Below the pieces are notes generated by a model, which was given only the letters and a program-made list of their open reading frames with translations, had not been told where the DNA came from and made no database searches. DNA of 63,434 bases, counting the filler, from Asterionella formosa (taxonomy: Eukaryota), in NCBI GenBank assembly GCA_002256025.1. It is 25 parts of 25 records of this genome, joined end to end, with 100 filler letters (N's around TTAATTAATTAA, not from the genome) between each part and the next. Parts side by side here need not be neighbours in the genome. Positions count along the whole stretch, not along the records: positions 20,930 to 45,753 come from NKIB01002146.1; 24 more parts are not named here. One strand, given 5' to 3'. The position numbers were made by a program, and so were the translations under genes. Shown here one piece after another: positions 22,736 to 46,592 of the stretch (position 1 is the stretch's first letter; every line of letters begins with the position of its first letter).

Positions 22736-23634
22736 AAAATAATAATAAAATTGCATCACCAAAAAGTACTCCAGTATTGATCTGCTAATTAAATTTACCA
22801 GCCTAGGCAAGTGATGGACAAATATACAATAAACACATTCTTTATACCGGAATGCTCCGGTAAATTGATATAGTAACATATGAATGAAAAGGAAGATTAC
22901 AACACGTCGCAAACTGTTTACCGGTATTCACATTTATGTATGTATGTTTACTTGGAGTACATCATAAGCCCTTCGCCGGCTGAGCACGCGATCGTGCCAA
23001 TTTAGCAATACACCGAAATAAGCAATCATGGGTGTGATGCACTCCAACGTACTATACCGGTAACCGGCATGTAGTCTCCATTGTTTCGCATAAAAGGTGT
23101 ACCTGGTACCGTAGAGTTGTGCGTGTGCGTCGTATATATTTCATTTATTTATGGCTGGATGATTATATATAATTGATAACGCGGTAACTCACATCATTGG
23201 CTATATCAAATTTGTATCGTATTGGAGGGGTCTCTAGTAAACCTGGATACCAGGGAACGGAATGATGTCTCGATATGATACCCTTTTTGTAGTCCAAGCC
23301 GCTCAAGGTTCATTAAATGTATAAGCAGGTCCATTTCTAATCCACGTCGTCATTCATTGAGTCATTCTTGGTCTGAAAAACAAACATTACAAAACGCTAT
23401 CATATTTCTCCATATGTAAAATACCTGTACATTTGTTGATCATTCAATTAAGAGCTTACAGTTTTTGACCAGGCGAAAAGGTGGTCATTGAATGCGAAGG
23501 CAGAGTGGCAGAATCAGTCTCGATAATAAACAGACAAGTGAGAGCTCAGAACAAGAAGAAATAAGGTATCCGTGCTGATCGATCGATTCATTGGTTCCTT
23601 TATTCGTTTCCTCCATCGTTTCGCGCAATTTGCA

Positions 23635-25755
23635 ATGCTCAGGATTCAGTGGATACTGCTATTTTTATATGTAATGCTTCCAATTTCTGTTTGTGGCATG
23701 GCTCCAGTCCATCCAGATGCGCCTGATTATGAAATATTACAAGAATACCACAGCCGACGGCGGCACGGCGTACAACCTGAGCTGCTGCATCCCAGAGTGT
23801 GTCAGGGACTCAGCGATGAGATATGCTTACAACTAGATTATGAAATGAAATCAAATGCCAGAAACTTGCAAAACATTGTTGAAACAGGTGGCTTCCTTCG
23901 AGTCTTGGTCCTCCTGATCAAGTTTACTGATCACGTTGACAGGGAGACGCCGCCATGGGAGAACTACGATATCCTCTTTAACGATTCTGGTGAGACGCCT
24001 TCGATTACTCCAACTCGATCTGTTGCTGCATTTCTGGATGTGAATAGTTATGGAAAACTGCAAATCGAGGCAGAGGTCATTCCATGGCGCCTTACAGACA
24101 ATACGGAGGAATATTATTCGTTCAATCAAAGCGGCCTCTCGACTGAATTTATTCGTTGCATGTACCCCATTCTAGATGAGCTGGAAGCCGAAGGATTTAA
24201 TTTTTCACGATTTGATTTGAACCAGGACGGTGTTATTGATTCTATCGGTACGTGCAGCAGACGGATTTTTGCATCAAGTAATTCTGTTTGCAATCCTCGA
24301 CTAACATTCCCTATGACTGACTTTTTTTGCAAAACAATAGTCGTTTTGCATTCTGGCTATGCTGCGGAGATTGGGGGAGAAGACTGCTATACGAACGCGA
24401 CAACCACAAATCGGATCTGGTCACATACTTTGGCCACTAGTACGGAGCAATGGATTTCATCGGATACCTCAATATCATCAAATGGATATGCGGTGGCCGC
24501 GGCCATGCGAGGCGCGTGCGATAATCGAACAAGCCGTATCGGTGTCATCACACACGAATTCTTGCACACATTCGGATTGCCAGATTTGAATGATAGCTCG
24601 GGTGATTGGATTGGAAAAGGACTGGGAAATTTTGATATCATGTCGAATCCGTTTGGAGTGAATACGGGTCAACTACATCCTCCTCACCTCTCGCCGTGGT
24701 GCAAAGCGCAGTTGAATTGGACCTATCCGTTCGAAATTACTCAAAATGGAGACTATGACGTTGTTGCATCCGAGTTGCAGGATAACATTTACTTGATCAA
24801 GTCTCCCTATCCCGATGGTGAATACATTTACATTGAGAATCGCCAGCCAATCCTGTGGGATGAGCTGTTATGGACGGGTGGTATAATAATTTGGCATATT
24901 GATGACCTGAAACCAAAAGAAAGAGACCGGGGATATCCCGGACAAGATGGGTGGCCAGGGAACAATAATCACTATATGATTGCTGTTGAGGCAGCAGACC
25001 GCAAGTATGATTTAGAGACTGGCGCGAACAATGGGGATGGTGGTGACTTTTGGATCCAAGGAATGGTGTATGGTTCTGGTCCAATTGATTTAGTGGCCCA
25101 AAATTACTCTATGTATCCCAACAGCAATTCGTATCAAAACGGAACGATTTTTCAGACAGGTTTATCGATTGAAATCCTGACCGCCAGCCAAGAAACGATG
25201 CGCATTCGTGTGACTGGCTTTTCCCCAACCCAAACTGTCAATCCAACATCTGAGCCTTCGCCGGAACCAACACTGAACCCCACTTATAGTCCAACGAATC
25301 AGCAAACAACAGAACCAACATCAAGCGGTCCGACCAGAAAGCCTTCGCATAGCACGATACCGAGTTCGGTTCCTTCAGGACAGGAATTACCGACATATAA
25401 ACCGACTTCAAGTCCAGTAGTAGCACCTGCTATTTCACCCACTACAAAGCCAATCACGGCAACCCCAACAATAAGCGGCAACGTATTTGGTAAACCAAAT
25501 TCATCGGTCCCTTCTCCCAGCGCTTCCCCAGAAGCGCCGGTGCCTTTTTCTCCTTTGACAGCGGCCCCAGTCGGTCACAATTTTTTTCATCCCACTATTG
25601 CTGTGAATAATAATACTGGAATTGAAGGCATAGGAGATGATCAGAATGCAAGCACGACACAAGGAACCGGCAGCATCACATCCGCAGGAGATCGATGGAC
25701 ATGGAGTCGATTCGCGGGTGTTTTTATATCGATTTTTGTTTATTGCATGTTTTAG
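23635..25755 (+). CDS. Secreted M6-family (immune inhibitor A-like) zinc metalloprotease with P/S/T-rich stalk and hydrophobic C-tail; intron 24248-24340
   Basis: Signal peptide, VLLIKFTDH, HEFLHTFGLPDL, DIMS, HLSPWCK-x-x-L-x-W, IENRQ, IWHIDD; GTACGT...CTAAC...TAG intron. Confidence 0.93.
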   Translation: MLRIQWILLFLYVMLPISVCGMAPVHPDAPDYEILQEYHSRRRHGVQPELLHPRVCQGLSDEICLQLDYEMKSNARNLQNIVETGGFLRVLVLLIKFTDHVDRETPPWENYDILFNDSGETPSITPTRSVAAFLDVNSYGKLQIEAEVIPWRLTDNTEEYYSFNQSGLSTEFIRCMYPILDELEAEGFNFSRFDLNQDGVIDSIGTCSRRIFASSNSVCNPRLTFPMTDFFCKTIVVLHSGYAAEIGGEDCYTNATTTNRIWSHTLATSTEQWISSDTSISSNGYAVAAAMRGACDNRTSRIGVITHEFLHTFGLPDLNDSSGDWIGKGLGNFDIMSNPFGVNTGQLHPPHLSPWCKAQLNWTYPFEITQNGDYDVVASELQDNIYLIKSPYPDGEYIYIENRQPILWDELLWTGGIIIWHIDDLKPKERDRGYPGQDGWPGNNNHYMIAVEAADRKYDLETGANNGDGGDFWIQGMVYGSGPIDLVAQNYSMYPNSNSYQNGTIFQTGLSIEILTASQETMRIRVTGFSPTQTVNPTSEPSPEPTLNPTYSPTNQQTTEPTSSGPTRKPSHSTIPSSVPSGQELPTYKPTSSPVVAPAISPTTKPITATPTISGNVFGKPNSSVPSPSASPEAPVPFSPLTAAPVGHNFFHPTIAVNNNTGIEGIGDDQNASTTQGTGSITSAGDRWTWSRFAGVFISIFVYCMF

Positions 25756-26141
25756 ATACGATTTGACTTCTGGTGCTGCAACAGGCATTTTGAAAGAGGC
25801 GTCTAACATGGAATGAATGTCCATTAGAATTTGATTGGTAGTAGCGACATTTGGGCTTCAATGAATAAGAACTATTAATCGAGAGCAAAAAGTCAAGGAG
25901 ATTACAATTCACCAGTGAGAGTAAAAAGCATAAGGGTTTGCTGTCAAAGCACACAAATAATTTGGAAGCACAAAGTTCCCAACCGTTTCCGTATTAGGTG
26001 GCTTTTTTGCTAGTGAATTGCTACATCAGTCTGGTCTCGCTAACACACATAATGTGCAAAATCAAAACTCCAATACTTTCTACACAAGTTTGGGTGATTG
26101 CTTTCAACTATAACGAGCGAAAAGTCTCATGTCCATATATT

Positions 26142-27993
26142 CTACTCTCTGCCACCGAATATGTTAATTCCTGTAGAACCTCCAGCACCTCCGCCGCCGC
26201 CTGAGAGTCGTAAAGAAACTTTATCGGCTTGTCGGGATTTCTTTTGCGGCGTAATGGTGACGAGAGGTTGAGCACTTACTGGGTCATTGCGGGAAAGGGA
26301 AATGGAAGGCATCCAAGATGAAATGGGCGACGGAGTGGTGGAAGGTGCCACAGGCGATGTAATGGGGGAGGGGGCTGTCACTGATGCCGATGAAGTCGCC
26401 AGCTGCGATACAGGTATGCCCGAGACTCGAAATGTCATTGTAGTATTCGATGCACTGAAATCGTAAACTTTTAGCTCAGTCTGCTGAATGTTTCCAGACT
26501 GGTAAGAATTCGTATTTGGAAAATACAGTGAATTATTGGTACCCACAGTGCTTAACGGACCAGGTCCAAGTAGCATACCATCGTTCCAAAAGTCGCCATC
26601 GTCTCCGGAGTTTTCTCCTTTTTCGAGGTCGAATTTACGATCCCCTTGTAATAGAGCAACTTGATAGTGCTTGCCATTACCGGGCCACCCGGATTGCCCA
26701 GGATAGCCTCGAGTGCTTTGACCAGTCTGGACGTTGTCATCAATATGATAGATTAGGATGCCACCCATTCCAAGGAGGCTATCATAGGACGAAGGTTGTC
26801 TATTCTCAATCAGTAAATATTCGCCCGTTGGATACATCCAATCAATTCGATAGTATTCACTGGCCTTTTCGCTGGCTGTGATGTCATATATGCCGTCCTT
26901 AACAATCTGGATAGGTTCGATCCAACCCAGTATCCATTTACTCCAAGCACTCAAGTGTCCTGGGCTTGTTCCATCGCCGTTTCTTCCGTATGGATTGCTC
27001 ATTATATCCCAGTATCCAAGGCCCTTTCCAATTCCTTCAGACGACATATCGTGGAGATCAGGTAAGCCTACGATTCGACAGGAGCACAGTTTGTATTAGG
27101 CAGCACATTCTATGATTGTTCCTCGACGCATCACTCCTTCGTCGACAGTACTTACCAAATGTATGCATTAGCTCATGCGTTGTGACTCCAATCCTCGCAA
27201 GTCCCCCATCACATAAACCTCTAAGCCCGGAGGATACAGAGTAACCATTTGCTTGAATGGATCCGTCAGGAGCCGTCCATTGGTCAGTTTGAAATGCCAC
27301 AGTGTGCGCCCAGATTCTCTCTGTCCCAGTTGCACCTGTTTCACAATCATTTCCACCAATCTCAGCGGGATAACCCGAATGAACAATAATAATGTTATCA
27401 ATTAAACCGTCGTTATTGTGATCCACTGCTGAAAAATCAAAATTGTTAGCATAAAGCTGATCCAATACGGGGTACATTGCAAATCGAAAATCCTGCGTCA
27501 AACCAGAAACGGGTACTCCAAATGAGTCCAAAGCAAAGTGCAATTCAGTGTTGTTTGTCATGATCCAATCAACGACTTCCGCTTCAATTTTAATCTGGTT
27601 ATATGAGTTTAGAGCGACCCACTCGCTGATCGAGCCTGTAGGAGTGGCGTCAGATATTCCAACGCCATTGAATAACTTTATGTAGTCCTCCCTAGCGGGC
27701 AAAACTCTGTTGACATGATCGGTGAACCGAATCAATAAGACGAGTGGTTTCAGAAAGTTGGTCGTCAACATAAGTTCCCTTAATAGACGGGCGTTGTTTT
27801 GCATTTCATCTTCCCATGTATCACATCCTTGGGATGACAGTCCCTTACAAATACTAGGATGGATCAAACGAGTCGAAGTGTAGTCGTCAACGTCAATGTT
27901 ATGTAGCCCATCATAACTTGGAGCATCGGGATGCAATGGCGCAATAGCAATAGCCACGGTCGGTAATAGAAGAAAAAGCAACCAAAATTTCAT
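26142..27993 (-). CDS. Second secreted M6-family metalloprotease; intron 27068-27155
   Basis: Signal peptide; HELMHTFG|LPDL joined by a GTAAGT...TAG intron; DIMSNPYG, HLSAWSK, IENRQ, IYHIDD. Paralog of the previous gene. Confidence 0.93.
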
Positions 27994-30944
27994 GATCTTG
28001 ATTGATATTGAACTATGCAGGTATTTCTGAGTTAGTTTGATTTTTCGTTCAATTTATGGCGGGTCGAGGTGAAATGGTGTTCTCTGTCGTGGTTTGTTTG
28101 CTCGTTTGAGACTACATAATGTAGATATATATGGTATAGAGTGTGTGTTTATATTTATTTATCCTATGTACCTGATATACTCATATATATCATAATATTC
28201 ACAATCTTTATTACATAAGACTCCAGCTTCCAAATGATTTTTGTTTACATATTAATACATGAGTATATTGTTATTTTCAAGCAGAATGGATAGCGGTATA
28301 CACAAAGGTAATGTGCGCCATAAGTCCCGGTTCCCCTTTCATAAGATTGGCTGGTAGCCACTGTGCAAGTTGTCCTTGGTAAAATTGGAAATTTTACAAA
28401 ATCTTCCTTCGTATATTTAGTAATGCTGAAGTCGGTACACCTGGTACCAGGTACCATTACTGTTAGCTACTGGTGCTTCGTCCTGTACTTGTATTCTTAT
28501 TTGGCGGTGGTGGTAAACTGTATCCGGTGCTCTCTCGTAAAGTTCTTATACACCGTGAGCACAACATTCGGTCACCCACGACCATATCGCCACCAACGAT
28601 CAGGAAGGCGTACGCTAGCCCTGGTATAGTATTTACGAACTTACATCATTGTTCTCCAGAGGAAGGTCCGCTAATCGAGATATTTAGCTTAATCATAGTC
28701 TGAGTAAATCCGGCAATCGAGATATTGAGCTTTACTGCGTTTACCCGACCTTCCAGCAGAAGCATATTCCACCCCATTAGAGCATATTAGAAATCCCAGC
28801 CGCGATGCTAAATGGTTTCCGTACTAATAATTGACCTACGTATTATATGGAGACTAACATGTGCAGTACTCTATCCAATGAAAAGGTGGTGTACTCTATG
28901 TAGGAAAACAATACTACTTATTGATGGTCCCTGAGTGTCTTAATCTCACTTGGCTTGTCCCAAGTGAAAAAAGCGAATGCACCACCACAGATTAAATTTA
29001 AAACAAAATTGGAAGAAAGAAAAAAGATTAAAAAGGAAATAGTGCAGAATTTGTCCATCATTTGGGAGAAAGTACCCAGCAGGACTGAGAACTCCTGTGT
29101 TGTTGGTGACCAGTGTATTGGGTGTAGTTACCTTTCCTATTTATGTGGTATGTTCCATGGGTTGGCTGCTATCATTGGCACAAAAAAAATTTGGGGCTAA
29201 TGAAGCTAATTGTAATGATTGCCAGGATGATCAGTTGGCAAGTGACCCATTCGCTTGGTGGTGTCTTGTATTGGGTCACATAAAAAGCAATTTTATTTTT
29301 TGAAAATTTTCAAATACCTTAAGTTGATTTTTTTGATTTTCAATGTTACAGTCCAGTTATGATTCAACAATATGTGATTGCACACATGAAACTTTCACTA
29401 GGTTGCTCAAAACTTTCATGCTTGTTGAGTGGTTGGGTAGGATGAATTAATTGTTTTTGAAGCATCAGTTGTCCATGGTATGATCAGCACTTTGAAAGGT
29501 GATTGACTCACCATTCAATAGCAGTTGCCGACATTGTATATGTGTTTTCCAACAATGGTTCTGGGCATATGAATTACTGCTTGCATCCCGCATTGTACTA
29601 GTACTGTACTGTAAAACCAGAATGCATTGCATCTTGCACTGCCGTATTGAGTATTGTTTTCGATGCCATCAAACTCTTGAAACAAATGTGACACATCTCA
29701 CAATCCAATTTTATTGAGGGCCATACAACTGGTGGGCCCATGAATTGCATAGTTTTGATATATTGCTTGATGAGCCCATGATATGCATGTACTATGACAT
29801 CATAATCAAACTGTTAAACAGATTTTAGGATTCTAAAAAATCATAGCAGATTGATTCAATTTCCTCCCAATGTTATGCTTTTGGCCATGGTTGCTGCTAG
29901 TTGATTTTCCTTTGCAGCATGGCTCGAGTGGTGACGATGATGATAACCAAGGTTGTGCCAATTGAATCACTCTACAGGTCAGAATACTTGGTGTTTTAAA
30001 GAATTTCGAATTTAATCTAGCTTTATAATGAGCAAGCATAAAGTGATTTACAGTAAGACCATCATATTATTTAGCGAGGTGACTAGAAATTCTTACAATA
30101 CCATAATGTAGCGACTTGTTCCCCTGACCGACATATTGTGCAAAAGTTGTATTTCTCTTCATACAGCCTGAAGCAATGTTCGTTGTTTCTGTTTTTTGCA
30201 ACTGTGGTCATCGTCACAAACCATCTGTGTGTGCTTACAAGGTCTGGTTTAAAACCAGACACCTTGATCCTTGTATTCTTGAATGCTGACAATTAAGCTG
30301 GTAACTGATTGTCCCATGTCATTATCGTGAATCCCATCTGAAGTTTCATCAGATAAATTATGTCTCAAGAAGGATTTCAAAATATTTAAATGGAACAATG
30401 GTTCCAGTGCCATGACCGACGACTTTGTGATTCCTGGCGCACTGTTAAGAGCATCAGAAATGTTGTACTTGGATCTCTTTCGCTTGCATCGTTAGTAGCA
30501 TTTTCCAAACTGTAATCGACTACCTCGTTTTCACATGCATCATTCCATGCAAATAATGGTAATATTTCTTTCTTCACTTCGCTTATAGCCATTTTTGCAT
30601 TAGCAGAAAAAGGAGTCCCTATCTTGCATGATAGCTGAAATAGTCTTTTCGTGCACTTACAATAGCCACAGCGTCCGTTATAGTTTGAGTGTCCAAAGCT
30701 GCAAAACATGTCAGTCAGGGGAAATCGTCGTGATTGCATTATTTATCTTGATATCTAGCAAATCATTAAAAAATTTATCAATTTTCTATGCAAGTTAAAC
30801 TGCCTACTATTCCTGTTTAGATATCTTGAAACTGGATTGTTTGTCAATTTACTACACATGACTGAATATGTGGTACTAGCTTATCACGCTATTACCTAAT
30901 TGAATACCTGTTCATAAACAAAGCCCAGTATTGCTACTAGTAGG

Positions 30945-31010
30945 GTAATGGATTCTTATTGGTTAGCACGCCTGTTGTGTTGGCGGGTTCGAATCCTGTA
31001 TTATCCGCCT
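30945..31010 (+). other. Degenerate tRNA-like sequence (pseudo-tRNA or SINE head)
   Basis: TGGTTAGCAC (D-arm-like) ... GTTGTG ... GGGTTCGAATCC (B-box); no complete cloverleaf. Confidence 0.35.
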
Positions 31011-31269
31011 GGCTTTCCATGCAGTAGTATCTAGGGTTCGTGTGGCTGACAAAAAAAGGTCCCGTTGTACCATACAGATGAATAAAACAAGTACTCCTTG
31101 TTTCCTTTCAAAACAAGAACATGAGTGCGATTATTGGATAGCTTAATCTACTATATGTTTTGAGTTCAATTTAACCTAGTATTGCTAGCATGTATGAATT
31201 ACACTTTCATGCTAAAATCATATGTAGGTGTATAATGTTTTTATGTTAATTGCAATTTTATCATAAAAA

Positions 31270-31397
31270 TTCAGATAATATATTGATATATTCAAGTACG
31301 CATTTTGATGTATTCAACTAATTCATGTGATGCATTCAAAATCAACTAGGCTTCTTTATGTGAAGGTCACTTCATGTACTAATACGCGGCTTAGATG
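31270..31397. mobile_element. Third copy of the ...GCGGCTTAGATG terminal repeat family
   Basis: Matches 15459-15582. Confidence 0.75.
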
Positions 31398-32514
31398 CAA
31401 CAAGCGGTTCAGCTTGGAAGATGGCAGCAAGTCACATGATAGAGTATGAGCGATCATCTGCACAACAATGATCATACAAAAGACAAATTACCACGAATTC
31501 AGCTGCACTATTTCTACTACACTAGACTAAGTGAAAATGACCTGCATTTAGCAATAAACCTTCTTTTCAGTATCATATCATTTGTCAAAACCCTCAAACT
31601 TAGCTCTCTAGTAACAATTTTGCTAGTATGGATGACATACTCACATGCAACAGGTTTGATTTTGACAGGAAATTCCCTTGCTTCACATGTGATATCACAT
31701 TTTCTTGCAAGGTGACAAACTTTCTCATTTTTACTTGAAAAAAGTGACTTTAATAATATTCACTAACAAATGGTGCACCATCCTAGGCATGCCAGTGATC
31801 ATTTGGGGGTCCAGGACACCAATGTTTAGGGTAAAATTAGAAATATCCTCTTCCTTAGTAGTGCTTATTCGGCTTGCACAGACCAACAGCAAGTAGTCCA
31901 GCATAATTATAGTGCCCAAATCAGCCACCAATCAAAGTAAATCAGCAAAAACCAAACTTGTCATGAATAGTCATCACGCATCTACAACATTGTGAGTATT
32001 CCAAATGTTAAGGCCAAGAGTGTTTCAAAACTACACAGTGGACAAGACGACAAAGTTGGTCCATTAGATGGCCAAAATAGAGCTCCACTGACAGGCACAC
32101 TTGACACCAGAGGTGCCGCTGAAGGTTTGTTGCTGACATAGGAACTTGATGCATAATGGGGTGAATTTAAAATGGCAGGTACACTTGGCAAGATTGATGA
32201 CCCCAAAGTAGTGTTGTTGACAATAGCGCTTGATGGAGAAGTTTCTTGAAACTGCATTAGACAGGAAAGTTCGTAAGTGGCATTGACATTTTGCTTCAGA
32301 ATCTTTATGGGGACAGAGAACCAATCAAGTTGTCCTTGTATCACCTTTCCGTTGTTTTCATGAGTCCAGCTTGGATTGATTCGGGCATTTACAATGTGGG
32401 CTTGAGGAGGAACATCAGGACGCATGTTAAGTGGTTGACTGGCCCAATTTTGATCCACTTGGGCACTTGCTATCACAATGAGTTCATCTCCAAGGGAAAG
32501 TGAAGACACATCTA

Positions 32515-35383
32515 CGTCTGTAAATAAACAATATCGTACTTATAAGATCAGGGGTATCATACGATAACTGGCACAGAATTTTTCTGTGCATGATACATAT
32601 TTCGTTATATGTATGATAAATGCATACTATGAAAGTGAACAGACTAAGCTTACTCATAATAATCAAACCACCATATAATTATCAAAACATTATCCTATGA
32701 TGTATATTCTTTCATCATTTAACTATCCTGTCTTATATGATGGTAACTCTAATCGAAATAGCTGTTAAAAATAGGTTGAGATGGATTGTAATTTTTCTGT
32801 TATATCACGAAATCATTTTTATGTTTCTACATTTTGTGTGGTTAAACAGCCAATGTTCCCCTTTTCTATTCTTGTCTCAACAATGCTCTTGATGCATGCC
32901 TCCTGCCTCCCTTCAATGCTCGTGAGGATGCATGCCTCCCCCAACTCTCTTCAATGCTCTTAAGGATACATGCCTTCCGCTTCCCTTCAATGCTCTTGAT
33001 GATGCCTGCCTTTCCCCCGCTTGCCTTCAATGCTCTTGAGGATACATTGCATCCTGCCTTCAAATCTCTTGATGCATGCCTCCCACCTCCCTTCCACTCA
33101 GATTCTGAAACTCATCTGACTTCATGCTAAAAATCCCATTTCCTTTTGATCAGATTGTGTTTTATCTATTTTGATTTCCTAATCATAACAACAATGAGAA
33201 GGAATTACTCACTCGTTAGCCATGTTTTTTTTACATCTCAACACTGCAGTCCCATTTTAGCATGCTCCACTCACCAGAAATCGATGAACTTTCGCATAAT
33301 TCAGTAAAATAATGTGTCAGTCAATGATCACAGCACAAGTACAAATCAATGAACCGTTCCACCAATGTCATTTATAACTTACAACAAAAATCTTTGATTA
33401 AAATTATCCTGAAAGATTGAAAAACAAACTTTGTGTCAGTGATGTTCTAACAGTGGCTCATTGATCCAACAAGAGCATTTACAAGTTTTTGGTCGACATT
33501 GGTGGTATCCCGCTGAATGCGAAATGTGCTTTTGAATTGCTAGGAAAAGAGGGGATCATTTTGCTAGTCTTTGTGAACCCAACAATTGATCACCTTGGCA
33601 TGTACTCTTGACATACCATAGCTAGATTCCATTCACTCTTCCATTTTCAATCCTTCTAAGCCGCAAAATTTATCATCATTGTGTGCATTGAAGCGTTTTT
33701 CTTTCAGTTTTCCTTGTTTGTCACAGGGCAAAGATGATCTTTCATTTCAGGATCATGTGGTACCGGTAGCTCTAAACATGATTTCAAATGTATAGGCTAT
33801 GTATACATTTATAAAATTTTGAAAACAAACAAATATATACGCATAATGTTTATACTATCATCAATTAAGCTTATACATAATTCAAATATATATAATGCAT
33901 GAGGATATCATTGTTTTCCATTTCCTGATTTACTGTCTTTGATTCTTTCTGCATCAATTCTTGTACCTACAAGTAAGTAATTTAATTAAGCCCCTCAATT
34001 AGCGGGAATCATACGAAATTTTTCATATGGTACAAATCATAAAATATTTACTGGCAGATGAATCACTCGAATCAACCTTTATAATTTACAGATCATACCT
34101 CCTGGTTAGAAATGATTGCCGATAAATAAGATCACATATGACATTTTTTAGCTTTTTCGATCTTACTTTTAACATGAATATATCTTACTACTAAAAAATT
34201 ACAGATCATACTTTGGTTAGCCAATAAATAAGATCACAGATAACAATTTTTAGCTTTTTTGATCTTACTTTTAACATGAATATATCTTACTACTAAAAAA
34301 TTACAGATCACACTTTCTAGTTAGATGTGATTGTCAATAAATAATATCACAGATTACAACTTTTAGCTCGTTTGATCTTACTGTTAACCTAAGTACGAGG
34401 TGACAATAGATATCAATGTCACCTTGTTTGTCCGATAACAATGTGTTATCATTGCGTCCCCTCCCCATCACCAATAGACGATACCAATGTCGTCACCTTG
34501 TCTGTACAAGAACGTGTTGTAGCCTGAGTACAAGGTGACAATAGATACCAATGTCACCTTGTTTGTACAAGGAAGTTTTATTGCGTCCCCTTCATCACCA
34601 ACAGATACCAATGCCACATTGTTGTATGACTACCGGTACGTGATATTGCGTACCCTCAATCACCTTTAGATATACCAAAGTCACTCCCTAACCCTATCCC
34701 TATCATGGGCATGATTCAAATTCAAATCAATCGTACACATAGTACGTTTACATACAAATATCTGTGCAACATACCGGTATATAGGTGTCACTATGATGAA
34801 CATGATTTGAATTCAAATCAATCGTATGCATACTGGTACGTACGTTTACATGCAAAAATATGTGTGCTACATATATACCAGTAGGTATCCCAATGATGGG
34901 CAGGATTAAAATTCAAATCAATCATGTACATACGTTTACATACAAAAATATCTGTGCAACATATTGGTACTACCAGGTACCAGGGTATCAGGTAGTACAA
35001 TAGATGATACAATAGACAGTAGTAACTCACTCACAAGTAGACTTGAACATGCATATGCATATATATGCATTTCTATTATGTCTTCTAAACTATAGATTGC
35101 TACATCAGATATGTACACATACCCATGTACAACTACAGATATGTACACATACCCATGTACAACTGCATACTCATGCAACTTGCATTCAGATTGGAGCGGT
35201 TGTTGATGTTTGCAGCCAGTGATGGTATACATACAAAAATACATGTATCAATATATATATACATACAATATTCTACATGACGATAAATCTTATTCATATT
35301 AGATGATAAATCGAATTTATATGATCATATGATCGCCATTATAAGATGCATCACACGAATTAGATGTTTTCTATTTGCAGACG
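32515..35383. mobile_element. Non-autonomous TIR DNA transposon, 2869 bp, TA target-site duplication
   Basis: TA|CGTCTGTAAATA ... TATTTGCAGACG|TA (TIR 11/12 match). The empty site restores the host ORF. Other ends at 6690, 16529 and 18368. Confidence 0.9.
34085..35165. repeat. Compound subterminal arrays inside the TA-TIR element
   Basis: About 3 units of ~110 bp (34085-34390); GGTGACAATAGATACCAATGTCACC hairpin units (34398-34690); about 3 units of ~95 bp (34710-34990); 30-bp duplication (35106-35165). Confidence 0.8.
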
Positions 35384-36386
35384 TAAGAATGCTGAGAATA
35401 GTGGACCCCGTGTGCTTGCTCCAACAGGTTGAGCTCCACTGGATGAGAAATTCCCACTTCCATATGAGTCAGTGAAAAGGTCAGCTGGAGTAAAGACAGA
35501 CTGAATATCACCAATGTTTGGCTGTGATCTGCAATCGAAATGATCTTTTATGGAGAGATCACTTGCATATGCAGCCCAAACTTGAGTATCATTTATTGTC
35601 AGTGCACCTCTGACAGTCCAATGAACAGCAACTTCCAATTGATCCATGGGCACTACAATTATTGATATGGTGTCGCAAGTGCGTATAATTGATGGAACAG
35701 CATCATCAGAGAATGCAATGTTGTTTACGCCAATTATTGAAACATAGGGTTGGACGATGTCAGAACTTAGTAGTGACAGTCTAACACAGCATGAAATGTA
35801 CCCATTACCACTTGTATCGCTTTTCAATACATTTTCAGTATTTCCCGAAGTTCCCAAGCCAGGAGTCTTGTCATTACTAATCTCAACTAGTATATTAAAT
35901 GCTTGCAAGACAGAGTCATTGTAGACCTTTTTCTCAGAATAGTACCCACCATAGGTACTTGGGTTGCATTGAAGGATCCCAACTTGCTGCATATGCCCAA
36001 TCCTCCATGCCACCCCTTACATCATACACAACTTCATTGCTATTTCCAACCGCGAACACTAGACTGTTTCCAAAGCTACCCCCATATCTTGAGTACGCTT
36101 GGACAATCTCCGCTTGCGAATAGTCATCAGGCCTCAAGAATCCCAACCACAACGATGCGCCTCATTTATATGAAATGACTTCTTGGCCCCCATGAAAGGT
36201 GAAAGCTAGTTGAATGAGGTGTTCCCTAAAGATTTCATTGAGAATCCTTGCGCCTACAGGCAGATATTGGATTGACTTATTATATTGTATGTATACTGAG
36301 AAAAATTGCTTGCGCCATGCTGAAAAAATGACCCCATAAATGTTGTGTGGTTAGCTATTCATTTGGTTATAATTGATATCATTAGT

Positions 36387-37721
36387 TCAGGACCAGTTGG
36401 AAGGGAATTGATGGTTTCCATTCTTCATGCTTCCGCTCATTGAATTCATTCCCCCATTGTTTGTTTGCATTCCATAGTTCATTTGCATACCATTATTATT
36501 CATACCATTGTTGAATTGCTGATTCATGCCCAATCCACTACCAGAGTTCACCATCATCATCTGCTGTTGCTGTTGTTGCATCATGAACATCATTTGTTGC
36601 TGTTGTTGAGGATTCATAGATCCATTGTTCATTTGAATCATCAATTGTCTTTGCATCATGATCAAATTCTGTTGCTGCATTGGATTCATACCACCAGTAG
36701 GGTTCATGTTGTTTGGTTGCTGTTGCATACTGTTATTCGTCATCATCATGTTTCCACCACTACCAGCAACATTAGAATTCATGGGCAGGGTTGGTCCACT
36801 CCCCATCATCATCAAGTTGGAAATAGCACAGCTGTTGGTAGCGGAAGCACCCCCCATGATTGGTTTCTTTGTAGCAGTATTGCAAGTCATAGTGAATGCT
36901 GCAGGTGCAGGTGCAGGTGAAGAACTCACTTCAAGTCCACTAAAGTCGGCGACAAATGAATTGACAGAATTGGTCGCAGCACCAATGCCAGTAAAAGATC
37001 CCTTAGATGGATCCGACATGACAGCTGTTGGTGGCTGGATAAAGGCAAACCCAGATGACGTTGGTGCCGATGGAGGCTGTGCAGGCGGAGGCGTACATAC
37101 AGCAGTCGTCGGAACAGGAAAAAAGGAATCAAAGTTTGCGTGAAATACGTGATTCTGCGCAGGTGCAGTGGTTGTTTCTGCAGCTGGTGCAGAAAAGTCA
37201 AGAAGGTCCATGACAGGGGGAAGGGGAGCAGAAGCGGGTGCAGCAGCGACGGCCGGCGCCTGGATTACGACTCGTTGGGCAGCCGGAACAGGAGCCGATG
37301 CAAAAGCAGGCGCAGGCTTCTCTCCGGCCCCCTCGTCGTCTCCAAAATAATTTCTTCGCTCGTATACATCCACAACGAATGACTTGAAGACATTCAGGTC
37401 CGACCCCGGCTGAGGTCTCCCCCCTTGACCGATCGGAGGCGCGTGCTTCAACCAGGTCCTTCTCGCGACGTCATTGCCTCCCTGCTGCTCCAACTTGTCG
37501 ACTTCTTCATCGGTCCACGCTGACATGGTTGTGGACTTGCATCTATGACTAATGGCCTGATGCGACGACTTGCACTCATTGCACACGAAGGTTAGGTACT
37601 TGATGCAAATGGACGACCACCCAAACTTCTTTTCGTTCCCGCAGTTGGCACAAACGGTATTTCCTGGCACGCGAGCAAGTTTGCGGATCTTTTGTTCCGC
37701 TCTAGTGAGGTTGGATGCCAT
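36387..37721 (-). CDS. ArfGAP-domain protein (AGFG/AGD14-like) with low-complexity M/Q/N C-terminus
   Basis: GNTVCANC-x16-17-CNEC-x-x-x-H zinc finger, W-x-x-EEV, GGN-x-x-AR-x-x-W, DLLDF motif. Confidence 0.92.
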   Translation of the reverse strand: MASNLTRAEQKIRKLARVPGNTVCANCGNEKKFGWSSICIKYLTFVCNECKSSHQAISHRCKSTTMSAWTDEEVDKLEQQGGNDVARRTWLKHAPPIGQGGRPQPGSDLNVFKSFVVDVYERRNYFGDDEGAGEKPAPAFASAPVPAAQRVVIQAPAVAAAPASAPLPPVMDLLDFSAPAAETTTAPAQNHVFHANFDSFFPVPTTAVCTPPPAQPPSAPTSSGFAFIQPPTAVMSDPSKGSFTGIGAATNSVNSFVADFSGLEVSSSPAPAPAAFTMTCNTATKKPIMGGASATNSCAISNLMMMGSGPTLPMNSNVAGSGGNMMMTNNSMQQQPNNMNPTGGMNPMQQQNLIMMQRQLMIQMNNGSMNPQQQQQMMFMMQQQQQQMMMVNSGSGLGMNQQFNNGMNNNGMQMNYGMQTNNGGMNSMSGSMKNGNHQFPSNWS

Positions 37722-38707
37722 GATGCTTGCTGGCTGGTTCGGTTCGGTTCGAGACTTGTTACTTTAACTTGTCGGGGAGCGGAGTGACCAAGATGGTCAA
37801 CACAGTCACGACGATGAAATGTGAACAAGACAGACTGTAGTATTGCTTACCGGTATATGTATTACTCCGGAGTCCGTTTAATACTGGGTACCAGGTACCT
37901 GGTACTACTGAACTGGATTATGTACGGTATTGGAATTACCGGTAGCTGCCGCATTATTTATACCCAACGTCCATGCATCATTTTATTACAAATTACCTGG
38001 TACGTGGTATAGTACCACCAGGTTCTTTTCATTTTTGTCACGAATCAAGTCCACTAACTGCACGGAAACTGCAACTCACAGCCAGAAACGGTACCAGGTA
38101 CCACCTACCGGTACTGGAGTCATACTCACTGTTTTTCTGCGTGAGAGCTGCTTGGGCGTTTCTCTCTCCTGCTGCCGCCTTCTTGTTGTTTGGAAAAATC
38201 AATCCTCTTGTATCATGACATAATAAAAATAATACCAGTAGGATAGGTTAGCTACCGGTATTTCATTTCTTTCCTTCGAGCTCGTCATGCTATGAATATG
38301 CCGGTGGTGGTATGGTACCTGGTACTAGGAGTGAGTACCCTTGTATCTGGTACCAGGTACCAGGTAACAATCGACTCATGCATGCCTTTGAAACAGGAAA
38401 CCGGTTCCAGGTACCGGTTCTCGTACAGTAGGTACATGGTACCCTAGTAGACTACCAGTTTATAGATGCCTCCCAACCACGATCGAAAAAACTGTGTGCG
38501 GTATGTATACGACTTATAGAACAGCCAACAAGCAAAAATGGACGACGACACGAAAGAATTTTAGAAGTTTCGCTAACGCTCCTGAACATAAATTATCGAG
38601 GCCAATGCATGCTCCCACTTTTGCATCTACCGGTACTGCCTCCTATTGTTCTCTCTTTAGAATTTGCTTGATCCGATCCACTTTCCAATACAAGAAACAG
38701 CAGCAGA

Positions 38708-39978
38708 ATGAAGGCATTCTTCGATAAACTAAAGGGCGATGACAAAAACAACAACAAAAACAAAAACAACAACCCATTTGCCAACTTTGGCGGGCCGCGC
38801 ACGTTTGGAGGTCAAGGGCAATCATTGGGTGGTTCTCAACCAGGCAAGGTCCTTTCTGTTACTTTAGAATATCCTGGTACATTGGGAATGAAGGTACGGC
38901 ACGCGATGCGTGTAGACTATACATTTGTATCAATGTTGCGTTGCAGGCCCCTATCCGATTTTGAACCTTCCTTCACATTGACACCATCTTTATCCAAACC
39001 TCCTTTTAGATTGAAAAGAGACCCAATTCGGCAGGAAGTGCCATTGTTGCCATGGTTGTTCCTGGGGGACAAGCCGAACTAGCAGGCCTTTTACGTGGTG
39101 ACATTCTTTGCTGGCATGGCAAGGAAGAAGAGATCAGTTACGATGAATTTATTCAAATGGCCAGCTCGGACGTGCGCCCCTTGACATTTGATATTAGACG
39201 TATCAAGACAAATGCACAATCGTCAGCATCAGATCAAATTGATGTCTCAACAGCAGAGGCATATCAAAGGAAGCAAGCAGTCATTGCAGCTGCTGAAGCA
39301 AGGGACAAGGCGTCGAAGCAACGGAACAAACCTATCCCAAAGAAAAGCAAGGCGACAACGTCTGTACAGAAAATTAACGAGTTAACTGATATGCCCATGT
39401 CAGAAGAAGCCAAAAAGGCAGTTCAAGCTGCAAAGATGGGTGAAACGGAATTCGCAAAGCAGCTGGGCTACAATCCGTATGAAACAAACAAGGCTACGGC
39501 AGGTCAAGCACGGAACGCCACAGTAGCTGCCAAACATGGAAACATTCATTCTAAGAACAAGGATGCTGTGCCCGCAGAAGTAACCCCTCCAAAAGAGGTC
39601 ATCCAACCTGACCTGCCTCCTGTCTCTCCTTCATTTGAAGAGGCTTACATGGTTGTCGTCACGTCCAATCCATCCGATCGTGTTGTGACTAGTTTTTCAA
39701 TTATGCGTAAATTAATCGTCAATGCCACCACTAAGGGGCAAACCTTGGACGACGATACGTCTGCCAAATTCAGAAGGGTCCGATTAGCAAATGACAAGAT
39801 TAAAGCAGCTATTTCTGAGGTTCATGGGGCACTCGACCTCATGATGAGTGTGGGATTTCACTTAGCCGAGGAAGGTGGGGAGTCCTATCTTGTTTATCCT
39901 GCCGGAGAAGCTACGCCATTGTGGATGGAGACTGGTCTGACTCAAATGGAACAATATGAAATCAATTCGACAGCGTAG
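38708..39978 (+). CDS. PDZ + PUB domain protein, putative p97/Cdc48 cofactor; intron 38894-39009
   Basis: Spliced GTLGMK|IEKRP...VVPGGQAELAGLLRGDIL (PDZ); KLIVNA...KFRRVRLANDKI...GALDLMMSVGF (PUB); GTACGG...TAG intron keeps frame. Confidence 0.88.
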
Positions 39979-40058
39979 TAGTCACGGAACGAGTCAATTA
40001 AATTTGAAACTATGAATTTTATCATGTACACAGGATCAGGATTAACATTGGAAGGATA

Positions 40059-41843
40059 CTACCAGTCGTCCCCCCAATCTTCTTCGCCTTCCTGAACGAC
40101 TGCAGACGACGCTGAGACATTCACAGTAGGAGTAGCTGATAATTCTTGTTCTGGAGCAGCGACGATGGTAGGTACGGGAATGTTGTCGTCGTCGCTCTCC
40201 GGAATGGGAATCTGCACACCAGACGAACACGTGTCAAACGATTTTTCTTCGACACTTTTTGCATTTATGGCAGTTCTGATCGATACAAGTTGCGCCGTCA
40301 AATCAACCACCTTTTCATCCGACGCGTCCGCCTTGGATTGCATTTTCTGGAGCTGCAAGTTGAGAGACTCAATTTCTTTGCAGTGGTCTACCGACGCATC
40401 TTCGGCAGCCACTTTGATCTTGGCGGTTTCTTCTTTGAGGAGCTTGTCAAAAGAAGCCTTTTGCGCTTCCATGGCAGCCTTGGCTTCCGCAAGTGCGACT
40501 TTCAACTCATTGCATGACTCTTCCACCAAGGTTACTTGACGCTGCGCATCTCGCAATTGAAGCTTGAGCGATTCGCATTCCTCCTTGGCCCCCTTAGCGT
40601 CTTGCAAGGCAGCTGACAACCGACCATCTTCTTCCGGAGATACCAAGGCTGCCATTTTGGCATCCGCATCTTCAACTTGTGTCGCCATTTGGAACTCAAA
40701 TTGTTCCTTCGCCTTGGCCATGTCGGCAGCCTGTTGATCCATGGATTTCTTCAGCTCGTCGATAGTCGCCTCAAGGTTCTTAATGTTGGCATGATCAAGC
40801 TTGGCTTGCTTGTCATCCATGTGCTTGTCTTCTCCGCTAGCTTTAAAAGCAGCCAGCTCTGCATCCTTTTCAAATAGTTTCATTGTCAATTCCTCTACTT
40901 GCTTGAGAATCGCGGGTGATTCTTTGCCATTTTTTAAGGCAGCCAATTCCTTGGCTTGCAATGCGACCGTTTGATGAAGGGCATCTCTTTCAGCCAATGC
41001 CTCTGTTAGCTTGTCGTCTGCTACGCCCCCGGTAAATTCAATTTCTTCCTCTGGTTCTTTCTGTTCTTCAGGTTCCCCTTCGTCGTGTCCTTTTTCTTCG
41101 TCCTCGAACGATTCATCGTCGTCACCCCAACCTAGCTCCTCTTCTACTTCCTCCTCCTGCTCGTCATCATCATCGTCCTCATCAACTGCCGTGTTCAAAA
41201 CAAACGGTGGTCTACCTCCAAACAAGCTGGCACCAGCATTGAACGCAAATGGACTAGCTGGCACAGGTTCTTGAGCAGACTTGTCGACTCTCTCTACTGC
41301 CTTACTGACAGCCGCCACAGCCCCACCGAACAGGGATGTGACAGTGGCAATGCCGCTACTAATTGCAGCTTCTCTGGCAAGTTTCTTCTCTTGGTACTCC
41401 TGGTCCCATTCCAACTGAATTCGTCCTTCGTCGCAGCGATAAAAGTACCGCATCCAAAAGTCCTTATAAGCGACTTGCTCGGGACATACCATTTCAAAAC
41501 ACTCCTTCACTGAAGCAGAGGTCCCCAGCAAGGTCGCAATCTGGTCTGTTTCAGACTCTAGATCAAACGTTTCCACAAACGCCACCACGTCCGGTCGGCT
41601 CTCGTCCAACGGTTCCGTGTATGTTGCTGTCAGGGTTCGTCTCCTGGCCACTTCGTCAGACACCGAAACCACCATACCAGTGGCTTCAAATCCGGATTCC
41701 AAGGAAAGTCCATCTTCTCCCGTGACGTCGCCCCCAAGTTCCAAGTTTTCCACGGATTGGGTAAGTTTCGTAGTCACAACGGCGGTTTCCTCTTCAACGC
41801 CTGACACAAACTCTTTAAAGTCACTGGTGAGTGCAGCCCACAT
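40059..41843 (-). CDS. BSD-domain protein with acidic linker and long coiled coil
   Basis: CPEQVAYKDFWMRYFY (BSD FW-x-RYF motif), ELGWGDDDE, C-terminal EEDWGDDW; 594-aa intact ORF. Confidence 0.88.
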   Translation of the reverse strand: MWAALTSDFKEFVSGVEEETAVVTTKLTQSVENLELGGDVTGEDGLSLESGFEATGMVVSVSDEVARRRTLTATYTEPLDESRPDVVAFVETFDLESETDQIATLLGTSASVKECFEMVCPEQVAYKDFWMRYFYRCDEGRIQLEWDQEYQEKKLAREAAISSGIATVTSLFGGAVAAVSKAVERVDKSAQEPVPASPFAFNAGASLFGGRPPFVLNTAVDEDDDDDEQEEEVEEELGWGDDDESFEDEEKGHDEGEPEEQKEPEEEIEFTGGVADDKLTEALAERDALHQTVALQAKELAALKNGKESPAILKQVEELTMKLFEKDAELAAFKASGEDKHMDDKQAKLDHANIKNLEATIDELKKSMDQQAADMAKAKEQFEFQMATQVEDADAKMAALVSPEEDGRLSAALQDAKGAKEECESLKLQLRDAQRQVTLVEESCNELKVALAEAKAAMEAQKASFDKLLKEETAKIKVAAEDASVDHCKEIESLNLQLQKMQSKADASDEKVVDLTAQLVSIRTAINAKSVEEKSFDTCSSGVQIPIPESDDDNIPVPTIVAAPEQELSATPTVNVSASSAVVQEGEEDWGDDW

Positions 41844-42629
41844 GATGAATGGAGGGGATGTGGGATGGACTCTATATAAAATGTAGGGAAATGAATGTTA
41901 CTGCCGGTAGTTGATTGGACACCGTGAATGATTTTGTGGCAATAGCGATGGTGCGACGATAACAAAAACCCGTTATATTTTTTCTAAAGAACACAGAAAA
42001 GTTAGAAAAACTTTACGTACAAAAAATAAATAAATATCCAGATATAACCCGTATTCATTGCATGCGTGTATGTAGGGATATAGCGGGGGACCAAGACTTT
42101 CAACTTGCACGACGAACTCCCTCCCCTTCACGAATCAATCAAAATTCTTCAAAACGACACACAAGAAAGCCGCCTTCCCTATCATTGTTGCATGTTGTCT
42201 CCTTTCAAAGAGATGCACTCACCAAGCACGTAAATGATGAAATAATGTAGAATCGAAAAACAAAGAAACGTAATGTAGTATTGAACGAGAAGCAATGATT
42301 CTTGCGAAGATTGAACAATGGTATGTATGTACTGACTACCTGTACATTCCTACAATGTTTTTAGTAAGAATTTAATTTTATCATTGACTGTCTACATATA
42401 CCAGGTACTGGTACCAGGTACCAAGGGAACAGGGGTACTATCTGCTGCTGTATTTCTTAGTCTACTGGTAGTCGTCTACCGGTGGTCTATGTAGACACGG
42501 TATGTGTAGTGGTACATGTAGAAAATATACATCATTTTGAAAGAACAATTCCGTTTTCCTGTGGCTATTTCTACGTTAACTAATACTGGATGAATAGGAT
42601 TTACGTACCAGGCAGGTACCGTTACAAAT

Positions 42630-42915
42630 TTCGACACAATTACTCTCTCGTCCGTTTCGTCTTTCTCCATATGGAGTCTGTGTAGTAGCTTCGTTGGGAC
42701 CCCGCTGGAATACCGGTATATAAAATCGATCCAGAGAAAAATAGAATAGCGACCCAGAAATTCTGAGTAGAAGTGGAATAAATGGTTTTTGAATTCGGTG
42801 CTTCGCTATATTAATATCTCAGCTTCGACTCCTTCGATTCGCGTAGCGTGGTTTGTATACCGGTAGTCCAGTGCTTGCTTGGTATATCTCCATCGTGTCT
42901 GTCCTTGTCCATAAT
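42630..42915 (-). mobile_element. Solo A-B remnant of the Ngaro-like element
   Basis: 42630-42802 matches 427-597; 42803-42915 matches 905-1014. Internal deletion, no coding sequence. Confidence 0.8.
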
Positions 42916-45543
42916 AGACACTGTCGGAGGATGTGCGTAATAAAGGACCGTCTACTGGTACATACGTTGTACCAGGTATCCACCATTACACACAAACGAA
43001 AGTCCCAGTTCCTATATTCTTGCTATTTTTGGAATGATTTCTACTGGTCTTTGGCGAGATTGGCAGGTGGCCAGCAAGGAACAAATAACATTGTGGTTGC
43101 CAGAAGCATCTCTGTCCTAGAACTGGAATTGAATTGAGTTCTTTGTAGGACATTACACTTCTGGATGTTCATGGGGGACAATGAATGGTTGGATATTCTT
43201 CAACAAGCGGCAGATCAAATGATAATGGGTAAAGCCTCACAAAATCTCCGGAATGGATAGTATTGCGTAGATGGTTTGACTTTTTCTCCTTAATCAGCCC
43301 ATCTGCCTCTAATTTACTTGCACCTGTAGCAGTTAGAACTCTTTCCATTTTAGCTGTAATAGTCAAAACATGGTAGAGGTGATGGATTGGATGCCATTAA
43401 ATTGTAAACAACGATGATGATTCTAGTCGAGCTATGCAAGGGCATTCTCGACGTGTCTACTATCAATAAAACAAAATGTAATTTTGCTACTATAGAAAAC
43501 AATGGACAAGCTAAATTAATTTCCATCCTTTGAGGCTTCTTCTACACGTTCCAAGTAGGAACATACGAGAGCAAATCTTTCTGTGAAACCAACTCTGGTG
43601 GGTATTGCTCGAATTCAAGGTATTCCTTCTTTTGGCATGGAAATATCACCCAATACAAGGTTTTCTCTCTTTTGGGCTTTTAAAATTTCCCAATACAACG
43701 TCATAAGTTTCAATACAAGTTGACAATTTTTGGCAATTCAAGGTCGCCTCTGTTTTGGGTTTTGTCAGCAGTAAAACATCATGTACCAATGCAAGGTCAT
43801 AATTTCCAATACAAAGTGACGATATTTTGCAATTAAAGGTCGAACCTTTATTGGTATATAGTCCTGGGAAAGGATAATACGAGATCATATTAATGCGCAT
43901 TGATTATATAACCCCGTCACTTTTTGAAGTATATGATCATCCAGTAATGTGTACTTTCAAAATTTTCTAAACATTTTGGCAATGTGTCTTGCTGGCATAT
44001 CGTGCTACTCAAATTTTTCTGCACTGAGAGTGTAAAGCATACAAATATATATATATGCATACATACTGAGACACATCACTGAGCCAATGGTACTATTTAT
44101 TGAGGTCACAAAAATAATGCCTCCAAGCTGTTTTATATCCTTTACAATGATGTGCGTCAAACATTTTCTCACTGCTTTACTCATCATCTCTAGCTGAGCA
44201 GGGAATGGGCACATGCCTAAATAAAGCGCGCCCCATGGTTGAGGAATTGAAATTCACTCATGACATGCATAGCATGTAGCTCCTTCTACTTTGAATTGTC
44301 TGTGCGTTATTTCTCACCTTTCATCGTGATTTTGTTCACTTCAGGAGTTCTTCAGAAACACCATCATTATCTCAGTACTTCTTTCGATGTAATTGAAGGA
44401 TCGGTGAATTGTTGCATGATTGGAAACGAAAAAGCCAGCTCGGCAAATAATATACATATTCCGAATTTGTGAAGGTTTCGTTGTTTTATTTTGCTTGCAT
44501 GCTATTTCTCAAGCTTGCTCTTGTTTCTGTCATTGCAGTGCTTAACTGTAAGCATTTCTTTCTCAGCAACTCCAATTCGCTTTGACTGATGAAGGATTGG
44601 TGAATTGCCATGAAGGCAAAGCTGGCTGGTGTCTTTGCTCAAGAACTTATAGATGATTCAAACATTTATGGTGTATTTTTTGCTTTTTAAATGAGCAACA
44701 AATAAATTTGCAATTGTTAAGATTATAGTATTTTAGCAATTAGTTTGCTATAAACTGAAAAAGGATCATGCGAAGAATACTGTAATGAGTTTTGCAAATA
44801 AGTTCTTGTTCTTGCATCCAATTTCAGGGCTACCTTGTATTGGATCCAAGTAAATATACCCCTTGTATGGGCGTGTCTAATACAAGGAATGCCTTAAATT
44901 GGAACTGATGTTCTGATTGGTTTACCAATGCAAGGTGGATGTGACAATACTAAAACCCAGTACAAGCAAGGTACTATTCATTTTGGAGTAACTTTTCACA
45001 CCTTGTATTTTAAAAAATCGGGTCATTATGGAACATAGCTTGTTTTGGAAAAGTGTCTATTTCCTGCTTGTATTGGAGACAGCACAGATTCACAACCCTA
45101 ACAACAAAGCTAGCCAATACAACAAGGTCACCTTTGTTGTTCTGGTAAACTACTTTTTCACCTTGTATCAGATGTATTTTTGTTTCGTGTTCAGTGATGG
45201 AATAAAAACATAACAGCCAGTAAGCTAATGACAAACCTCATATCAGATATATGATATTAATTAAACAGAAAACTAATAATAAGGGGTCAACAGGAAACCT
45301 ACATGTCATCATCATGAAACCAACAATTGCTGATAATATATTTACATACGTTCCAGTATGTATGATGTAGGTACTCTCTGGGGATTATGAGGATGCAGTG
45401 GTCGGTGATGCGGCATGCCGCGGGCTTTAAAAAAAATGGGCGCGCACTCCACCAGCGAAATCAGGCGGGGACAAAAAAAAGACTAAGGCAGTCTACTTCG
45501 TTCGTAACAAAACCATCAGCCAGACCCAATGCACCAAAAGACA

Positions 45544-46552: not shown

Positions 46553-46592
46553 CTTTGAATTCAAAGAGTGGTCGAATTAGAAGACAACAAAC

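Follow-up and report, generated by a model that had tools for sequence, protein, structure and literature searches.

Recurrent TA-flanked CC(W)GG insertions, possibly transposon excision footprints, in the nuclear DNA of the diatom Asterionella formosa

The stretch of Asterionella formosa DNA considered here (63,434 nucleotides, assembly GCA_002256025.1, called the window in what follows) contains recurrent short insertions in which a palindromic core, CCGG or CCWGG, stands between two copies of the dinucleotide TA. The window is not a single locus: it consists of 25 pieces, 24 of 1506-1512 bp and one of 24,824 bp (20930-45753), joined by 24 artificial spacers of the form N44-TTAATTAATTAA-N44, which lie at 1512-1611 and at 23 further places, about 1610 bp apart (1-20929 and 45754-63434). 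The DNA is eukaryotic and nuclear, and belongs to a freshwater pennate diatom. Its long open reading frames (ORFs) carry ArfGap, BSD, PUB, Peptidase_M6 and DUF6818 domains, the best named relatives of the ArfGAP ORF are in Pseudo-nitzschia, Fragilaria, Nitzschia and Seminavis, and most of the runs in which the stretch is found bear the label of a freshwater metagenome. The environmental runs X2, X6, X7 and X8 were compared with positions 25754-45753, and two further copies of the repeat described below, L001 and L002, come from a pattern scan of a metagenome collection.

Three tandem units, which sit within the single long piece, differ from one another by such insertions. They lie in a high-copy repeat block, and similar gains are found further along the same piece. 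The features are as follows (none is assigned a strand):

32540-35355: high-copy repeat block, at about 40-100 times the depth of the single-copy flanks in X2; contains the tandem units
34631-34638: TACCGGTA, within a neighbouring repeat of about 60-130 bp (34385-34690)
34695-35000: three tandem units of about 100 bp (Tandem Repeats Finder, TRF: period 100, 2.9 copies), which differ by motif insertions in the alignment; unit 1, 34695-34790; unit 2, 34791-34893; unit 3, 34894-35000
34772-34779: TACCGGTA in unit 1, where the first TA of ACATATATAGGT has gained 6 bp
34831-34838: TACTGGTA in unit 2, a CpG-transition form of the CCGG core
34876-34883: TACCAGTA in unit 2, where the third TA of ACATATATAGGT has gained 6 bp
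34966-34998: array GGTAC-TA-CCAGG-TA-CCAGGG-TA-TCAGG-TA-GTAC, at the end of unit 3
42711-42718: TACCGGTA, a paralogue-specific gain (self-BLAST against 424-596 and 1026-1198)
42858-42865: TACCGGTA, a paralogue-specific gain in a dispersed repeat

The motif of unit 1 is found in the context ACA-TACCGGTA-TATAGGT and that of unit 2 in the context ACATATA-TACCAGTA-GGT; when CCGGTA is removed from the former, or CCAGTA from the latter, the alignment leaves an identical ACATATATAGGT in both units. Units 2 and 3 and the L002 unit lack the insertion at 34772. It is present in L001, which is 97.9% identical to the window over 283 bp without gaps and also shares the TACTGGTA insertion. The insertion at 34876 is absent from units 1 and 3, and the homologous L002 unit has TACTGGTT at a neighbouring TA instead. 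Similarly, TACTGGTA at 34831 is missing from units 1 and 3, and L002 has it as TACTGGTG. L002 is 82% identical to the window; it lacks TACCAGTA and the array at 34971 and carries, at other TAs, TACCTGGTA and TACTGGTT, which the window does not have there. At the position of the unit 3 array it has only GGTACTACTACTAGTAC, and the three CAGG-bearing 7-mers of the window are matched by TACTACTAG. In the tandem array, every insertion is confined to one unit of three. In the neighbouring repeat, the motif at 34631 is missing from the paralogous units at 34385-34489 and present in L001. The original prediction held that the units differ by 6-bp insertions at TA. That they differ by insertions is confirmed, since TACCGGTA, TACTGGTA and TACCAGTA are each specific to one unit and unit 3 has a small array. 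The length of 6 bp holds at 34772 and 34876, but not at 34831, where units 2 and 3 differ by about 10 nt (CTGGTA plus CGTA).

At 42711, the window reads GGAA-TA-CCGG-TA-TATAAAAT where the paralogue reads GCAA-TA-TATAAAAT, and one X7 contig of another copy reads GCTGCAATATA. The motif at 42858 is missing from the other copy in the window (905-1015) and from five contigs of other copies (X6, X7 and X8), which indicates that its presence is the derived state, that is, a gain. In the paralogue comparisons, the copy-specific gains at TA are exactly CCGGTA, CCAGTA, CTGGTA or CCTGGTA, and a TA that is single in the empty paralogue is duplicated in the filled one (34772, 34876, 42711, 42858 and L002). 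These gains bear out the recurrent, sequence-specific micro-insertion at TA that had been postulated. By our reading, the motif type accounts for about six of the roughly eleven paralogue indel events of at least 4 bp in the window.

TACCGGTA occurs 37 times in the window, compared to a mean of 0.30 and a maximum of 3 in 100 dinucleotide-preserving shuffles, and TACCWGGTA occurs 33 times for 0.33 expected. TACCGGTA is the commonest 8-letter palindrome, once TTAATTAA is set aside: the excess of TTAATTAA/AATTAA comes from the spacers between the pieces and was rejected as an artefact. CCGG (n = 134) has TA at its left 57 times, at its right 45 times and on both sides 37 times; eleven control palindromes of 4 or 5 letters have TA on both sides 0-4 times. 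Among the TA-x-TA words counted at least four times, CCAGG, CCGG, CCTGG and CCGGG reach 74, 62, 59 and 53 times their expectation, and CCAG and CTGG reach 10 and 9 times. The sole other word that stands out is TCAGTGA (4 copies), which probably derives from a repeat. The excess of the motif at TA, another claim made beforehand, is thus found, and it concerns, as a group, only CCGG, CCWGG, CCGGG and CCAG/CTGG. The last two had been put forward as cores of their own; they are indeed enriched, but they are most simply seen as CpG derivatives of CCGG. TACCGGTA has 24 one-letter variants, of which the two that are CpG transitions are present in 11 and 8 copies and the other 22 in 0-4 copies each, which makes TACCAGTA and TACTGGTA most simply decayed forms of TACCGGTA.

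The motifs follow a simple grammar. The 94 units form 76 chains (62 single, 10 double and 4 triple), and the single-unit chains lie in unrelated unique flanks. Neighbouring units are of different types in 12 of 18 pairs and identical in the other 6. The 94 units on 4081 TAs correspond to 2.3% of TA sites. TACCGGTA is mostly a TA-bounded singleton, with 37 copies compared to 5-16 for the other five phases of (GGTACC)n, and its flanks show a weak A-TA-T preference: A over T at position -1 (13:3, p = 0.07) and T over A at position +1 (14:2, p = 0.02). CCWGG lies mostly within heptamer arrays of the type GGTACC-W-GGTACC, whose seven phases are about equally common (22-33 copies). TRF detects period-7 arrays at 46332, 47733 and 57417 and period 12-17 arrays at 51636-51692. 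The heptamer arrays also appear to grow by tandem duplication. Between neighbours, W is kept 8 times and flipped 10 times. Two other readings were considered and rejected: GTAC as a target, since G at -1 of the chains is almost independent of C at +1 (19 joint occurrences for 15 expected), and a NuwaI-like duplication of a CWG target around a GTAC footprint, since W is flipped in 10 cases and kept in 8 (n = 18).

Strict motifs never fall within ORFs of at least 150 residues (0 of 70), although 35% of all bases and 22% of all TAs lie in such ORFs. They are present in 13 of the 25 pieces, and they gather in clusters, of which the main features are listed here with the genes beside them (strand given where assigned):

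36387-37763, minus strand: ArfGAP ORF, flanking the densest cluster
37848-38635, no strand: densest cluster, with 5 TACCGGTA, 6 TACCWGGTA and further variant motifs
39010-39978, plus strand: PUB-domain ORF, flanking the densest cluster on its other side
42399-42420, no strand: mixed chain TA-CCAGG-TA-CTGG-TA-CCAGG-TA
51585-52332, no strand: second dense cluster, which spans two pieces of the window and holds a decaying heptamer run, GGTACCA GGTACTA GGTAACA GGTAGCA (51810-51840)

The arrays at 37887 and 38366 are break points common to 13-61 other contigs per run in three environmental runs. The loose ends of these contigs agree to only 0.37-0.45, so that their flanks are unrelated. Together with the presence of the motif in 13 of 25 pieces, this implies that the motif is dispersed across the genome. 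No match to the array pattern was found in viral contigs. A search for orthologous loci in metagenome contigs by means of the ArfGAP ORF matched 48 pattern stretches, none of which was confirmed. In X2, 40 gap letters fall across the motif-rich, single-copy region 35356-38123, and in X6, 6 fall across 37275-37864.

Excision of Tc1/mariner elements leaves footprints in which 2-4 terminal nucleotides stand between two TAs, and the canonical footprint of Sleeping Beauty is TACAGTA/TACTGTA, according to the description in PMC6943129. The TA-CC(W)GG-TA scars could be footprints of this type, a reading that we prefer to the others but hold tentatively, as possible rather than probable. A TA-specific transposon of the Tc1/mariner/pogo kind, with ends 5'-CC...GG-3', would have inserted repeatedly at TA in the diatom lineage and then been excised. 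In Tc1/mariner excision, which is the closest known process, the cut on the non-transferred strand falls a few nucleotides within the element, so that the terminal letters are left between the TAs after end joining; here the scar would be a duplicated TA and two terminal letters per end (TA-CC+GG-TA). One extra unpaired A or T in the middle would give TA-CCWGG-TA, in parallel with the TAC(A/T)GTA of Sleeping Beauty, and CpG transitions would then convert CCGG into CCAG or CTGG. Each scar would bring two new TAs, whose re-use, combined with ordinary tandem duplication of the 6-7-bp unit, would produce the GGTACC(W) arrays. Selection would purge the scars from coding sequence.

Such a model would explain why TA is duplicated, why the core is fixed and symmetric and may hold a W, why there are singletons and mixed chains, and why ORFs are spared. 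It is favored by the copy-specific 6-7-bp gains exactly at TA (34772, 34831, 34876, 42711, 42858 and L002), by the polarity of the gains at 42858 and in the tandem array, by the specificity of the TA-x-TA words, by the spread of the motif over 13 pieces and of the arrays over many contigs, and by the proportions of single chains (62/76) and of mixed pairs (12/18), since simple slippage gives no such mix. The TA bounds of TACCGGTA, its weak A-TA-T context and the absence of strict motifs from ORFs point in the same direction; Sleeping Beauty prefers ATAT contexts. The gains themselves, with their fixed cores, a polarity at some sites and their absence from ORFs, are observed directly; from them we infer a transposon as the maker, the identity of its ends and the mode of growth of the arrays. 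The cores are constant (CCGG, CCWGG); no element whose termini could be compared with them was found in the window. The original prediction had attributed the insertions to a very active TA-targeting transposon, or to a dedicated templated insertion or repair system: the grammar fits Tc1/mariner excision, but neither donor nor transposase is seen in the 61 kb to which the donor, inverted-repeat and transposase searches apply. It had also made the insertions a candidate source of the GGTACC-rich DNA. In addition to seeding by insertion, a second process is probably needed for this DNA, because CCWGG is mostly found in heptamer arrays and the array at 34971 looks tandem-expanded.

Several observations weigh against excision footprints. 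The search for donors, as pairs TAC[CT]...[GA]GTA separated by 40-8000 bp, returned 18 pairs, in each of which one motif array matches another; TA-flanked inverted-repeat elements beginning with CC(W)GG are thus not found in the window. No Tc1/mariner-type transposase domain was detected by Pfam scans of 62 ORFs (15 + 47) of the window. A density of 2.3% of TAs is very high for footprints when 61 kb hold no donor, and the 18 adjacent units greatly exceed the approximately 2 that would be expected, by our own arithmetic, if 94 events had hit TAs at random. A 5-nt core exceeds a simple 2+2 footprint. In the CCWGG form, position -1 is G in 26 of 33 copies and position +1 is C in 28 of 33 (GG in 19 and CC in 20), its outer cores often being without an outer TA, and this GG/CC context is not predicted by a plain model of footprints at TA targets. 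Judging from the comparison with L002, the array at 34971 looks as if it had been expanded by tandem duplication. No CC(W)GG is seen at the two boundaries of the 32.5-35.4 kb repeat. None of the 12 strain indels listed, out of 87, is of the motif type, and the sole 6-bp indel among these 12 is GGATGA at 42588. It is because the donor is missing, and the density, the adjacency and the GG/CC context are unexplained, that the footprint reading is held no more firmly.

The arrays could instead be a palindromic micro- or minisatellite, in which GGTACC and GGTACCW expand by slippage and strand switching and the isolated TACCGGTA arise by templated end joining, a break in TA-rich DNA copying one unit from arrays elsewhere with TA microhomology at both ends. 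The period-7 and period 12-17 arrays, the about equal abundance of the seven heptamer phases, the decaying four-unit run at 51810-51840, the three 7-mers at 34971 compared to TACTACTAG in L002 and the 6 identical pairs out of 18 all fit this explanation, which we nevertheless consider somewhat unlikely. Indeed, 62 of 76 chains are single, in unrelated unique flanks and without a template nearby, and templated end joining usually copies local sequence. Microhomology through GG, CC or AC should blur the bounds of the motif, whereas TACCGGTA is TA-bounded in 37 copies against 5-16 for the other phases; W is direct (8) about as often as flipped (10), mixed types make up 12 of the 18 neighbouring pairs, and the first arrays would still need an origin. 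The pre-existing repeat from which slippage starts is not seen at the empty sites, which are of the ATATATA type or unique; it is seen for part of the CCWGG arrays.

A dedicated process without a mobile element, in which a domesticated TA-cutting transposase or a nuclease makes breaks that are rejoined with a fixed CC/GG addition, would explain the gains at TA, the fixed core and the specificity as well as footprints do, and it is in keeping with the lack of a donor in 61 kb, the 2.3% per TA and the 18 adjacent pairs for about 2 expected. It is unlikely: no candidate enzyme is seen in the window, we know of no repair pathway that adds a fixed tetranucleotide, and 61 kb without a donor says little about a genome that is probably a thousand times as large. 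In a self-feeding variant, to which we give an equally low credence, no element would travel: TA would be cut, repair would write CC(W)GG, and the new TAs, in a GGTACC-like context, would be cut again, so that GGTACC(W) arrays would lengthen at hot spots, as a major source of non-coding indels. As a rough estimate from the few non-CpG one-letter variants, 2.3% per TA would be of the same order as the base-substitution divergence. Lastly, TACCGGTA and GGTACCWGGTACC might be sites for a transcription factor or a chromatin protein, kept and multiplied in promoters by selection. The motifs are palindromic, clustered and absent from long ORFs (0/70), and the densest cluster lies between two divergently oriented ORFs. 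This is very improbable, since the clean 6-7-bp gains inside high-copy repeats and tandem units are a mutational signature rather than a turnover by point mutation, and since CpG-decayed copies are common (19 compared to 37), in the manner of unconstrained sequence.

The repeat block that holds the tandem units has features of its own. In L002 (184-780, minus strand), the block continues beyond ...TCTATTTGCAG into an ORF, and the Atlas clusters closest to this ORF are DDE_Tnp_4 (PIF/Harbinger-like) transposases, with a score of 0.94. This identity is only an Atlas lead, the Pfam search being negative: no Pfam family was detected at E ≤ 0.01 on the transposon-like ORFs of L002 and L001 or on those of the window at 35363-36016 and 31985-32539, and no longer protein homologous to the L002 ORF was found. 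Four copies of the repeat (35290-35385, 16436-16528, 6597-6692 and L002) all end with ...TTTGCAG followed by AC, and then diverge completely; the letters of this end look like those of a 3' splice site, and the repeat may be introner-like, with a real or imitated intron end. One X2 contig lacks 123 bp at 33885-34009, the two sides being joined by TTAGGGTTAGGG, a telomere-type repeat within a copy of the high-copy element. The segments 32526-33209 and 17716-18359, on different pieces, are inverted copies with 85-90% identity and carry 33-36-bp tandem repeats (GATGCATGCCTCCC...). A second repeat family, at 31269-31397 and also at 15457-15582 and 21795-21879, reaches about 300 times the flank depth.

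Elsewhere in the window, Peptidase_M6 (immune inhibitor A-like) domains are found in two neighbouring genes of opposed orientation, at 23542-25755 (plus strand), an uninterrupted ORF of 737 residues, and at 26142-27095 and 27058-28053 (minus strand). An ORF with a DUF6818 domain (E = 3e-12) lies at 48196-49026 (minus strand). The segments 60669-61571 and 9664-10564, on different pieces, are inverted copies with 97.2% identity; such near-identical segments of different pieces may be repeats, alleles or strain variants of the assembly. The most GC-rich piece (GC 0.495) contains perfect (100%) tandem duplications of 62 and 47 bp at 13862-14032.

Compared to known systems, the diatom scars resemble Tc1/mariner/pogo footprints by the TA duplicated on both sides, the short, constant and symmetric core, the central choice of A or T, the shorter variants, the absence from coding sequence and the weak A-TA-T context. 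They differ from them by their core, CC(W)GG (4-5 nt) instead of C(W)G, by the lack of a visible donor or transposase, and by their clustering in arrays, where the CCWGG form has a GGTACC context. Their density is orders of magnitude above that of the footprints of which we know in any genome. They share with slippage microsatellites head-to-tail runs of GGTACCW or GGTACC of 2-6 units, some of which decay; unlike these, most occurrences are single and without a prior repeat, neighbours are often mixed, and the boundaries are fixed at TA. The REP/REPIN elements of bacteria and the GC clusters of yeast mitochondria are short GC-rich palindromes dispersed in AT-rich non-coding DNA. The diatom motifs are also short GC-rich palindromes that are gained or lost between copies, but a unit of 4-5 nt plus TA is too short for an element, the setting is nuclear and eukaryotic, and the contigs that share arrays have unrelated flanks (agreement 0.37-0.45). 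When they are considered as miniature inverted-repeat transposable elements, no conserved body and no terminal repeats common to the copies are found, and the flanks of the motif are unrelated.

The ORF that adjoins the repeat in L002, DDE_Tnp_4-like as an Atlas lead, suggests a comparison with PHIS elements (PIF/Harbinger, ISL2EU and NuwaI). The target duplications given for them in PMC4482050 are short and AT-rich or CWG (TWA, AT, CWG), and TA duplication appears in none of the six groups as that source describes them. A CWG duplication leaves the same W on both sides of GTAC, in contrast to the 8 direct and 10 flipped cases of the diatom, and CC(W)GG is not seen at the two boundaries of the diatom repeat.

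A record-level search of the literature found no description of TA-CC(W)GG-TA insertions or of GGTACC-rich DNA in diatoms. What is new here is a density of footprint-like scars without known precedent, the scars being likely seeds of palindromic arrays; the phenomenon would be categorically new only if the donor is absent. The arrays break short-read assemblies, and the presence or absence of single units could mark strains. If the scars are those of a transposon, cut-and-paste activity would be recorded in this diatom mainly through its footprints, about one per 0.65 kb examined, which would outnumber the visible donors. As a source of small indels, and of new palindromic repeats in the vicinity of genes, they would then be dominant, and the diatom would be a natural system for the study of the outcomes of excision repair and of the birth of arrays from a defined seed. 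If no donor exists, the scars would point to an undescribed process of sequence-specific insertion.

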